Source: a virus (lineage: Duplodnaviria > Heunggongvirae > Uroviricota > Caudoviricetes). From it: 48,989 nt of DNA. The translations under genes and the position numbers were made by a program. Location: IMG/VR virus record IMGVR_UViG_2541047945_000011, one strand, 5' to 3'. The notes below the pieces were generated by a model. It made no database searches. It was not told the DNA's origin and worked only from the letters and a program-made list of their open reading frames with translations. Positions 40,999 to 43,715 of the stretch are shown piece after piece (the stretch's first letter is position 1; every line of letters begins with the position of its first letter).

Positions 40999-41406
40999 AT
41001 GAACGAGAAAACTTTAGGTCAACGAATTAGAGAAAGACGCAAACAGGTTGGTTTAAGTCAAAACGATTTAAGCAAAGCCGCTGGCGTATCTGGCTCATCA
41101 ATTTCACTATGGGAAAGCGACCATACAGCCCCGCGCGGGCAAAATTTGCATCGCCTGGCTGAGGTATTGCAATGTTCACCAACTTGGATACTGTTTGGTG
41201 ACGAGGATAAAACACCAGATCCACCAGTAGCACTCAACAGCGCCTTAGACTTATCGGAAGATGAGTTGGAGATGTTGCGATTGTATCGCGCACTTCCAAA
41301 ATCAGAGCAGCAAGCACAAATCAGCGAACTCCGTGCCCGCGTTGAGAATTTTAATCGCCTATTCACCGAGCTACTAGAAGCTCGCAAACGTAACAAACAT
41401 CAGTAA
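40999..41406 (+). CDS. dicA: DicA-type prophage repressor (HTH-XRE, no S24 peptidase domain)
   Basis: 135 aa; ...GQRIRERRKQVGLSQNDLSKAAGVS...SLWE...LHRLAEVLQCSPTWILFGDEDK...ELRARVENFNRLFTELLEARKRN matches Qin DicA from memory. Confidence 0.85.
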   Translation: MNEKTLGQRIRERRKQVGLSQNDLSKAAGVSGSSISLWESDHTAPRGQNLHRLAEVLQCSPTWILFGDEDKTPDPPVALNSALDLSEDELEMLRLYRALPKSEQQAQISELRARVENFNRLFTELLEARKRNKHQ

Positions 41407-41595: not shown

Positions 41596-41748
41596 ATGGA
41601 TACTATCGATCTTGGCAACAGCGAATCTCTGGTATGTGGTGTGTTCCCCAACCAGGACGGCACATTCACCGCCATGACGTATACCAAAAGCAAAACGTTT
41701 AAAACCGAAGCTGGCGCGCGTCGCTGGTTAGCAAGAAACTCCGACTGA
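41596..41748 (+). CDS. ydfA: YdfA-like small protein (50 aa), first gene of the dicB-type early operon
   Basis: ATG at 41596 with GAGG RBS; MDTIDLGNSESLVCGVFPNQDGTFTAMTYTKSKTFKTEAGARRWLARNSD. The track's longer ORF starts at a TTG inside the promoter. Confidence 0.55.
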   Translation: MDTIDLGNSESLVCGVFPNQDGTFTAMTYTKSKTFKTEAGARRWLARNSD

Positions 41749-42098
41749 TGAGGTTGACGATGGAATTTAAAGATTTACCTCCTTCAATCCAGGAGATTGC
41801 AGCACACACACTTCGTCATCGTCTGAACGAACTTGAATTGGAATCGGTAACAAAAAAAGACACTGATAATATGGCTCGTAATGTGCGCGATGCGTTTACT
41901 GGGCTGTTTTCAGATACAGCTTTAAATATCCATGGCACAGAGGATACAGCAAAACAATTTGCAGAAAAAGAAGTGGAAGATCCCAGTTCAAAGAGCCAGA
42001 AACAGCCAAACAACCATGAAATTAACGAACTGCTTCTGGCAACAGGCTTCATAAATATTAACGAATATGAACGCCGTAAAAAAATGTTATCTGATTAA
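41748..42098 (+). CDS. Hypothetical acidic helical protein (116 aa)
   Basis: Start overlaps the ydfA-like stop (TGATG); no recognised family. Confidence 0.5.
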   Translation: MRLTMEFKDLPPSIQEIAAHTLRHRLNELELESVTKKDTDNMARNVRDAFTGLFSDTALNIHGTEDTAKQFAEKEVEDPSSKSQKQPNNHEINELLLATGFININEYERRKKMLSD

Positions 42099-42281
42099 TC
42101 CATCAAGATATCTTTTTAGCATCAGCGTTTCTACGTTATTAAAACCATCAGATTTTAACATAGCTTCGATTCGCTGATTTAAATTGCCAACTAACTGTTG
42201 ATACTGAGTAGATGGAAGCATGTGTACCAGCTCCTTGAGAACACAATAACATGCACCAAGTTTTAACTCCTGCTCTGACAT
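42087..42281 (-). CDS. Hypothetical small protein (64 aa), convergent to the early operon
   Basis: ATG at 42281 with GGAGGA RBS; AT-rich codons; MSEQELKLGACYCVLKELVHMLPSTQYQQLVGNLNQRIEAMLKSDGFNNVETLMLKRYLDGLIR. Confidence 0.45.
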   Translation of the reverse strand: MSEQELKLGACYCVLKELVHMLPSTQYQQLVGNLNQRIEAMLKSDGFNNVETLMLKRYLDGLIR

Positions 42282-42619
42282 TTTATCCTCCATTGAGGTT
42301 ACTGGTTGAGAATGGAGACCTCTCGTGACAGCGTGTGGTCGTGCGCCGGACACGGATAAGAATCCGGCACTGACAGTTTACTGAAAGGATATTTCCATGA
42401 AAAGTCAGACCATAACGCGAAAGCGCACGGCGAGGTAGCTGGTTCATAGATAGCCTGTCGTTAAATTTTCGTCGACCGTGCGCTTCCGGTTGTGACACTC
42501 CGCGAAATGGCGCGGCGGTAAGTATGACGGGGTTATTCCTTCCCCGTTGAGGACACCGGGTTGTCAGGTTGACCATACGCTTAAGTGACAACCCCGCTGC
42601 AACGCCCTCTGTTATCAAT

Positions 42620-42677
42620 TTTCTGGTGACTTTTGGCGGTATCAGTTCTACTCCGTGACTGCTCTGCCGCCCTTTTT
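42620..42677 (+). ncRNA. dicF: DicF small RNA
   Basis: TTTCTGGTGACTTTTGGCGGTATCAGTTCTACTCCGTGACTGCTCTGCCGCCCTTTTT matches Qin DicF from memory; sits between the ydfA-like genes and dicB as in Qin. Confidence 0.8.
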
Positions 42678-42965
42678 AAAGTGAATTTTGTGATGCGGTG
42701 AATGCGGCTCAGCGCACGCGGAACAGTTAAAACAAGCGGTCTTTTACGGGCGTAACGGGAATGCTCTGTATCCGACGTTAATTGTTAACTGGTTAACGTC
42801 ACCTGGAGGCACCAGGCACCGCATCAACAAAGTTCACTTCGGTGATGAAAGGTAGAGAAAATGTTGAATGTAGCTATTGAAAACCAGAACGGGTGGAATT
42901 ATAGTGCACCTGCACCTCATAAAACGGGTGCCGGGCGTGGAAACCCGAAATCATTCACGGCGCAT

Positions 42966-42988
42966 AACCGCGCTCAGGCGGTTTTTTT
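42966..42988 (+). terminator. Putative intrinsic terminator in the leader upstream of rha
   Basis: AACCGC-gctcag-GCGGTT followed by TTTTTTTA. Confidence 0.4.
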
Positions 42989-43157
42989 ATGCGTTAAGCA
43001 CAGCCACATTCGCATTATGGTGGGGCGTGCAGGGCAGCCGCAAGGCTGGCCGGGTTCCGTGATGACCGGTATTTCCACCCCTGTACGTCTCACCACCCTT
43101 ATGGTCGTGGAAAACCTCGGTGGTGAGTTAATCAAATTCATCGCGGAGGCTGCCATC

Positions 43158-43715
43158 ATGGCTACTATCCTTACCCTTTCTCACCCTGACGTAACCATCG
43201 AAAATGGTCGCGCTGTCACTACGTCTGTTGCGATCGCCGAGTTCTTTGGCAAACGCCACGAACGAGTGTTGGATAAAATTCGCAATCTGGACTGTTCAGC
43301 AAAATTCACTGAGCACAATTTTGTGTCAAGCGAATACACCGACTCAACCGGGCGCAAACTCCCAATGTACCAAATCACCAAAAACGGCTTCGTTTTCCTG
43401 GTGATGGGCTTCACTGGCAAAAAAGCCGCTGCATTTAAAGAGGCATACATTGCTGAGTTCGACCGCATGGAAGCAGAACTGCGCCAGAATAACGCCCCGT
43501 CTCCCGACAAAATGATTCACGGGGACGGACGCACCCTGGTTATCCGTCTCGACGAACACGGCAATATCAAATTCACTGAAACCGTTCCTGACGGCGCAAT
43601 GGTCTGCACCCTGGATACCTTCCGGTTTTATCTGGAGAAACAAGGATGGACTCTTGTAAACCGGAGCGCAATTAAAAATATGACTGTGGAGCAATTGCTA
43701 AAAATTCATTGTTGA
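43158..43715 (+). CDS. rha: Rha-family phage regulatory protein
   Basis: ATG at 43158 with GGAGG RBS; ...TTSVAIAEFFGKRHERVLDKIRNL...YQITKNGFVFLVMGFTGKKAAAFKEAYIAEFDRMEAEL matches the Rha domain. The track's N-terminal extension was rejected. Confidence 0.7.
   Translation: MATILTLSHPDVTIENGRAVTTSVAIAEFFGKRHERVLDKIRNLDCSAKFTEHNFVSSEYTDSTGRKLPMYQITKNGFVFLVMGFTGKKAAAFKEAYIAEFDRMEAELRQNNAPSPDKMIHGDGRTLVIRLDEHGNIKFTETVPDGAMVCTLDTFRFYLEKQGWTLVNRSAIKNMTVEQLLKIHC

Follow-up and report, generated by a model that had tools for sequence, protein, structure and literature searches.

Few bacterial small RNAs have been known for as long as DicF, and the sequence that precedes it in its 190-nt form has so far been treated only as a precursor. 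The window analysed here (the whole stretch of 48,989 nucleotides, IMG/VR record IMGVR_UViG_2541047945_000011) is a lambdoid prophage of Escherichia coli, and its positions 42340-42619, upstream of DicF, are likely a conserved sense-strand leader and precursor of that RNA within an early-left operon of the dicBF type. A distant BLAST search against phage records split the leader into two modules, A and B. Module B is a conserved pseudoknotted domain that travels without DicF, even into the ban leader of phage P1, and is always linked to a terminator. The locus itself is known; the fold, the distribution and the terminator link of module B appear to be undescribed in Rfam 15 and in the literature examined, and a prior description is possible. 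The finding raises the question of how early terminators are read through in lambdoid phages that lack N, and whether "long DicF" is a functional RNA in its own right. The interval that a preliminary description had flagged as an insertion is ordinary sequence of the K-12 prophage Qin, and the neighbouring small gene is an accessory gene independent of it.

Alignment settles the origin of the leader. Positions 42340-42733 match the ydfC-dicF spacer of K-12 Qin and phage Tritos at about 97% identity, and in Qin 340 bp lie between the ydfC stop codon and dicF. The leader is thus collinear with the K-12 spacer on the DicF strand, as a Qin-type precursor of the 190-nt DicF would be. To the left of 42340 the alignment finds no similarity to Qin or Tritos, and the block that starts there is common to many phages; because the Qin and Tritos alignment begins at 42340, the foreign segment comprises only 41748-42339. 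The leader had also been called unusually GC-rich, yet its G+C fraction of 0.49-0.55 is average for E. coli and is high only against the AT-rich neighbouring gene.

Folding supports the earlier claim of a structured region and indicates its strand. The plus-strand fold of 42330-42680 has z = -3.35, with 0 of 100 shuffles as good, and the minus-strand fold has z = -2.38. Module B pairs are canonical in 94.8% of alignment cells on the plus strand versus 90.2% on the minus strand. Because the pairing is better on the plus strand, and because the terminator, DicF and the published 190-nt RNA all lie on it, the region is read as a sense-strand leader and not as an antisense RNA. It had been described as abutting DicF on the opposite strand; it lies upstream on the same strand, and only the 64-residue gene is opposite. 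From the structured-RNA proposal, the non-coding character and the role as a DicF processing element are retained, while the antisense regulator and the joint unit with a 64-residue effector fall away. An Rfam 15 cmscan of 41900-42900 on both strands, with E up to 10, returns only DicF and a sub-threshold STnc100 match downstream. The leader and its elements are as follows.

42340-42495, plus strand: module A, two small hairpins and the long stem A3
42345-42368, plus strand: hairpin A1, from the minimum free energy fold and the RNAalifold consensus of 26 sequences
42370-42408, plus strand: hairpin A2, from the same fold and consensus
42411-42495, plus strand: long stem A3, core 42421-42485, about 21 consensus pairs
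42488-42603, plus strand: module B, proposed four-helix junction with a pseudoknot, about 115 nt
42489-42496 with 42596-42603, plus strand: closing helix P1, GUUGUGGC with GCUGCAAC
42500-42504 with 42511-42515, plus strand: hairpin P2
Between P2 and P3, plus strand: single-stranded CGGUAAGUAUGG
42528-42532 with 42542-42546, plus strand: hairpin P3, variable in sequence
42558-42566 with 42586-42594, plus strand: P4, a 9-bp hairpin with a 19-nt invariant loop
42522-42527 with 42573-42578, plus strand: pseudoknot, GUAUGG with CCAUAC of the P4 loop
42517-42519 with 42579-42581, plus strand: pseudoknot extension, three pairs added by RNAalifold
42604-42620, plus strand: AU-rich linker GCCCUCUGUUAUCAAUU, reaching up to the 5' end of the 53-nt DicF, which RNase E generates according to the literature
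42621-42672, plus strand: DicF small RNA (Rfam RF00039, 71.5 bits against a gathering score of 48)
42621-42677, plus strand: DicF with its intrinsic terminator and U-tract

Fold, distribution and terminator linkage of module B

The fold of module B is carried by comparative evidence. A two-block pattern collected 120 viral contigs, and the 71 distinct versions were aligned. In this alignment 94.8% of the proposed pairs are canonical, compared with 33-57% in controls that shift the partners by 1-3 columns. Covariation is 0.119 versus 0.084, a level that 0 of 500 shuffles reach, and eight pairs show changes on both sides. RNAalifold independently selected the pseudoknot helix, and minimum free energy folds of several variants return the four-way junction. 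Individual compensations include a pseudoknot pair that changes from U-A to C-G in P1-type phages, a P4 pair with the same change, and a pair of helix P1 that is C-G in the K-12 type and U-A in the cdtI type. P3 takes at least six unrelated sequence forms, each of which still folds as a hairpin, and the loops and junctions are invariant across the alignment. A covariance model of module B, R1, scores 155.9 bits at 42488-42603 and marks a single copy in the window.

Module B also occurs on its own. Copies that lack both module A and ydfC are found in cdtI, Ayreon, 2H10, twelve Stx2c phages, Salmonella phage F1055, pPE4, P7 and P1, and the autonomous match to phage records covers approximately 42489-42611 of the leader. 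In P1 it begins about 20-45 nt past the C1-controlled Pban promoter and precedes the tRNA genes and ban; about 180 nt separate the start site from the terminator, giving a primary transcript similar in size to the 190-nt DicF. In cdtI, about 600 nt downstream of a near-consensus PL promoter (TTGACA, 16 nt, CATAAT) carry no annotated forward-strand gene; in this stretch module B and then a strong terminator precede the first gene. Neither the window nor the whole cdtI genome holds a second copy in the manner of putL and putR. A contig scan with a 15-base pattern gave mostly chance matches, and only that in the E. albertii locus L029 is relevant. In none of the phages examined does the annotation place an N gene between the repressor gene and module B.

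Two side observations concern this distribution. In the N-encoding phage phiSTEC1589-Stx1c (locus L007, 2630-2720), module A and a DicF-like hairpin are retained, and the interior of module B is precisely swapped for the 7-nt loop UGAAUAA between GUUG and CAAC. The best secondary matches of model R1 (12-14.6 bits, E 0.002-0.03) fall exactly on the C4 antisense RNA three times, at 43010-43103 (plus strand) in the window and at 40-133 in both L261 and L263. They may reflect a distant relationship or a generic resemblance between GC-rich multi-helix RNAs.

A terminator accompanies module B wherever the flank can be read. Among 101 distinct instances with enough flanking sequence, a scripted scan finds a hairpin with a T-run 63-100 nt past the end of the search pattern in 100, and in the remaining one (F1055) the terminator is visible by eye. 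These terminators comprise at least seven sequence types. The DicF 5' motif begins only 62 of the 101 following elements, and no Rfam DicF is found after module B in cdtI, 2H10, F1055, pPE4, P1 or P7. Ten variants were folded; in nine the terminator is present in the minimum free energy structure with or without formation of P1, and the tenth (L133) is uninformative since the script's cut falls inside the hairpin. In the Salmonella prophage locus L261 (2100-2180, minus strand), module B is followed by the short non-DicF terminator GCGGGAGGGGGCACCCGC with U7, and the ribosome-binding site and ATG of a 192-residue gene lie 25 nt past it, a very tight arrangement of leader, terminator and gene.

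Processing of the leader and possible roles of module B

Published work on K-12 anchors the processing of this leader. Ragunathan et al. 2023 (PMC10448788), confirming Faubladier 1990 as cited there, describe DicF species of 53, 190 and 1146 nt in vivo. The 5' end of the stable 190-nt species depends on RNase III and that of the 53-nt species on RNase E; inactivation of RNase E makes the 190-nt form accumulate, and this form is stable and builds up in stationary phase. Counting 190 nt back from the 3' end of DicF (42673 minus 189) leads to about 42484, in the 3' strand of A3 and 5 nt before P1, so that 137 nt precede DicF within the stable form. Because this count lands in A3, the stem is probably the RNase III substrate that yields the 5' end of the 190-nt species, and "long DicF" would consist of module B, the linker and DicF.

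Within module A, hairpins A1 and A2 are dispensable: both are absent in mEp460, and A2 is replaced in L007 and L261. At the base of A3, CCAUAAC (42412-42418) pairs with GUUGUG, which is also the 5' strand of P1. Among phages the sequence opposite GUUGUGG changes while the pairing is kept, as CCAUAAC, GCAUAAC, CACACAAC, CAUACAAC or UGCAAC, and the cdtI and F1055 types carry an analogous long hairpin of different sequence. Module A occurs without module B in phiSTEC1589-Stx1c and PhiR5_2. A boxA-like reading of GUGCUCUC and GUGCGCUU just 5' of P1 was rejected, as these sequences are the 3' strand of A3 and covary with their partner.

The following pathway is proposed. Transcription from the repressor-controlled early promoter would run rightward across the leader, and the nascent RNA would first form A3, drawing the 5' strand of P1, GUUGUG(G), into that stem. 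RNase III would then cleave A3 near 42484. The freed strand could close P1, allowing module B to fold as a pseudoknot-locked four-helix junction. Transcripts that stop at the DicF terminator would become the stable 190-nt "long DicF", from which RNase E, cutting the AU-rich linker, would release the 53-nt DicF. Read-through transcripts would extend into isrK, C4, rha, dicB and the exonuclease gene. The placement of the RNase III cut in A3 and the handover of the strand from A3 to P1 are inferences; the identity with the Qin leader, the covarying fold, the link to a terminator and the occurrence and nuclease requirements of the 190-nt and 53-nt species are established by this analysis or by published work.

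The reading of the leader as a DicF precursor that supplies both a stem for RNase III and the structured body of the 190-nt species is well supported. Module B is more than a spacer: it is an autonomous, strongly conserved domain, and its invariant loops, its pseudoknot and its occurrence without DicF suggest that it binds a conserved host macromolecule. That it acts only as a scaffold for DicF biogenesis or stability is a minor possibility. Tentatively, it could instead represent a new class of phage RNA, shared by lambdoid phages and P1/P7, that engages host machinery as an N-independent antiterminator (the leading version) or as a protein-binding decoy. DicF and its variants would then be merely the exchangeable 3' terminator or seed of a unit of about 190 nt.

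Several points weigh against this account of the leader and module B. The sequences compared for module B are only modestly diverse: they come from enterobacteria alone, and the search pattern fixes two conserved blocks, so that many pairs never vary, and the shuffle control for covariation is optimistic when sequences are related. The pairing of the A3 extension with GUUGUGG is not significant in individual sequences, as 10-50% of mononucleotide shuffles pair just as well. The RNase III site is set by length arithmetic alone, and the "813/814" numbering of PMC10448788 could not be matched to positions in the window. Finally, the window copy carries G-to-A changes at 42495, in a P1 pair, and at 42527, in a pseudoknot pair; both positions are nearly invariant G elsewhere, and this copy may be slightly impaired.

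Among more specific roles, an N-independent cis-acting antiterminator is possible but doubtful. By analogy with the HK022 put RNA, and with a different fold, the nascent domain would bind RNA polymerase or a Nus factor and let transcription pass the DicF-type and later terminators. Such a role would suit the placement of module B, which always lies in repressor-controlled early operons before a strong terminator that must be read through. The genes beyond that terminator are dicB and the exonuclease gene in the window, the 192-residue open reading frame in L261, and the tRNA genes and ban in P1; the window also has a second terminator (isrK) downstream of DicF. The carriers examined have no annotated N between the repressor gene and module B, and the only N-encoding lineage examined, phiSTEC1589-Stx1c, has the module B interior exactly deleted. 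The link to N absence is nevertheless drawn from one counter-example and from annotations. The invariant loops and junctions are as expected of a protein contact surface, and the varied, independently folding terminators fit a mechanism that ignores terminator sequence. Against it, the put and module B covariance models do not cross-match, there is one copy per genome and none in the right operon, and the 53-, 190- and 1146-nt species reported in PMC10448788 show that substantial termination takes place at the DicF terminator in vivo.

A second role, rather unlikely, is that module B and the terminator hairpin together make up a stable non-coding RNA in its own right, about 180-190 nt long, that binds or decoys a host protein or nuclease, with the DicF seed as a variable 3' appendage. 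The stability and stationary-phase accumulation of the 190-nt species (PMC10448788) agree with it, as does the conserved unit length, whether the 5' end is made by RNase III (Qin type) or by the promoter (P1). The 5' domain is constant and the 3' hairpin variable, the four-way junction with its loop-to-junction tertiary pair is cloverleaf-like, and the P1 copy adjoins tRNA genes. Against it, no partner is known, ARAGORN reports no tRNA or tmRNA there and Rfam gives no match. RNase E also converts the 190-nt RNA to DicF, according to PMC10448788, as it would an intermediate.

A riboswitch-type ligand sensor that sets termination at the DicF terminator is improbable. Such a sensor would fit the junction and pseudoknot, which resemble an aptamer, have invariant unpaired nucleotides and stand directly before an intrinsic terminator, and the P1 strand has a competing alternative pairing with A3. 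A transcriptional riboswitch would share a strand between aptamer and terminator or pair the two, but module B neither overlaps the terminator nor is complementary to it in any conserved way, and the terminator forms regardless of P1 in the nine informative variants. Rfam searches with E up to 10 return no riboswitch, and in Qin-type phages module B lies about 0.9 kb into the operon. A relay in which the 3' strand of P1 pairs with the 5' strand of the terminator was also rejected; it is possible in the K-12 type, unconserved in the cdtI type and absent from the folds.

The 64-residue gene and the surrounding operon

The non-Qin segment to the left of the leader and the remaining operon features are listed here.

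40999-41406: DicA-like repressor gene of the early-left operon, before the DUF1391/ydfA gene
41748-42098, plus strand: open reading frame ORF116, the N-terminal half of a phrog_2151 gene, which together with the 64-residue gene replaces ydfB/ydfC of Qin
42087-42281, minus strand: 64-residue phage gene (phrog_4987; RefSeq WP_001295058.1)
42282-42339, minus strand: ribosome-binding site and 5' flank of the 64-residue gene (58 bp), the last part of the non-Qin segment
42912-42988, plus strand: isrK, downstream of DicF
43013-43100, plus strand: C4, downstream of isrK

The minus-strand gene is real, as the preliminary description proposed. It is an ATG reading frame with GGAGGA 5 nt upstream, it is annotated in RefSeq, and its product matches phrog_4987 over its full length (residues 1-64 on profile positions 1-64 of 64, E 3e-49). 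The AT-rich composition noted earlier holds as well, with a G+C content of 33-39% throughout, and so does the convergence: the gene faces the plus-strand ORF116, and the two 3' ends overlap by 12 nt. ORF116 matches phrog_2151 at positions 1-101 of 212 (E 2e-55), is marked incomplete in RefSeq with its C-terminus missing, and lies in a stretch without alignment to Qin. Its half length and the 12-nt overlap suggest that insertion of the cassette truncated it.

The 64-residue gene is an independently acquired, moron-like accessory gene outside the RNA device. A Salmonella homologue, 86% identical, stands at the identical junction beside module A, and the junction sequence 42282-42339 is also found in L261; the cassette is thus old in one sublineage. 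The gene is missing from most leader-RNA loci, including those of K-12, Tritos, cdtI, P1/P7, F1055 and pPE4, and in mEp460 an unrelated minus-strand reading frame occupies its place. Among 5426 complete E. coli genomes, 4570 match a 751-bp query (window 42000-42750) at least in part, at a median of two places each; 152 of the 4570 have the whole arrangement, and 15 genomes carry a sequence identical to the window copy.

As to function, PADLOC gives no defence-system match for the 64-residue protein, and no relative was found in the PDB. Identity with the anti-adaptor IraP was considered and rejected. The protein weakly matches the IraP profile over its C-terminal two thirds, and NCBI names a Citrobacter homologue, 72% identical, IraP; the N-terminal third of IraP is absent, however, and the match to Pfam PF10796 reaches 14.4 bits (E 0.06) against a gathering score of 23.2. 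Only an N-terminally over-extended homologue passes the Pfam cut-off, at 24.2 bits. The NCBIfam IraP model does not match the protein, and BLASTP against an IraP sequence is not significant.

These observations largely refute the idea of an inserted unit in which a structured antisense or processing RNA and a small effector protein act together on DicF, which is now very improbable. In its favour, E. coli and Salmonella both have the gene next to the leader at the same junction, and the promoter of the gene must lie antisense to module A. Yet the RNA region is native to Qin, the gene is missing from most of the RNA loci and replaced in mEp460, a promoter scan found no minus-strand promoter, and structure and context favour the plus strand.

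The view that the region holds no convincing reading frame also stands. Several phage records annotate hypothetical proteins across it, and the sole long frame (42283-42618, minus strand, 111 residues) matches no Pfam or PHROG family. This frame is closed in 29 of the 71 variants; the 71 distinct core homologues are 132-138 nt long, with 1-nt indels among their length differences, and their substitutions by codon position (279, 308 and 310) show no third-position excess. With compensatory changes within helices besides, there is no conserved frame or codon-position bias, and a decayed protein-coding gene or a genuine 111-residue protein has next to no likelihood.

The early-left operon is encoded on the plus strand of the window in the order DicA-like repressor, DUF1391/ydfA, ORF116, DicF, isrK, C4, rha, dicB, DUF1482 and exonuclease. 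Right behind DicF lies an STnc100-like element (42684-42831, plus strand; 35.6 bits, below the gathering score of 47). Similar sub-threshold STnc100 matches lie past the DicF-type terminator of mEp460, pPE4 and phiSTEC1589, and others are seen in the ban leader of P1/P7; a full STnc100 of 132 bits lies elsewhere in the window (30377-30566, minus strand). The RefSeq-style Rha reading frame of 284 residues (42861-43715, plus strand) begins before isrK and C4 and spans both RNA genes. Because GGAGG and an ATG near 43169 look like the true start, the annotated N-terminus is probably over-extended. The prophage further carries a sok antitoxin RNA of the hok/sok type (34878-35049, minus strand; 106.7 bits) and three tRNA genes (31266-31339, 31443-31515 and 48012-48098, minus strand).

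Comparison with known systems

The closest counterpart is the 190-nt "long DicF" of K-12 Qin. It shares about 97% sequence identity, the strand and the position before the 53-nt DicF; in K-12, RNase III makes its 5' end and RNase E that of DicF (PMC10448788). The papers examined describe the RNA as a processing species only and report no fold, pseudoknot, covariation or occurrence outside dicF loci for it; an earlier description may exist. Upstream, the two loci differ, as the window has the truncated gene and the 64-residue minus-strand gene instead of ydfB/ydfC.

The put RNAs of HK022 and HK639 resemble module B in being structured cis RNAs upstream of terminators in the early operon of lambdoid phages that lack N, and the putL-like RNA of HK639, annotated at 126 nt, is similar in size. 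Architecturally they differ: put consists of two adjacent stem-loops of about 70 nt, whereas in module B about 115 nt form a closed four-helix junction that includes a pseudoknot. Put is present in both the left and the right operon of HK022, and module B is found only once. Homology was rejected despite a 9-mer, GCGCGGCGG, shared with HK022 putL, as reciprocal covariance-model searches are negative. Model R2, built from seven put sequences and scoring 95 bits on putL and 47 bits on putR, finds no match at module B in the window, P1, P7, cdtI, F1055 or pPE4 (E up to 10, filters off), and in the HK022 immunity region, putL and putR included, the module B model has no match. An analogy to terminators in HK022 was dropped because no scan-detectable terminator lies right after putL.

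A tRNA- or tmRNA-like element was rejected as well, since ARAGORN finds no such genes in 42200-42800. C4 (P1/P7 immI) and IsrK (Gifsy-1) are, like module B, small structured RNAs within or at the end of early phage transcripts, and copies of both lie 240-430 nt downstream in the same operon of the window. They belong to other families, model R1 scoring only 12-15 bits on C4, and both act by base pairing.

Phage P1 offers the last parallel. Its record (NC_005856) names a "dicF-like region" at 68791-68892 and gives neither a structure nor a function for it. Rfam DicF is unmatched there. The region overlaps the P1 module B, from P4 onward, and its terminator, and its resemblance to the dicF locus lies in module B.

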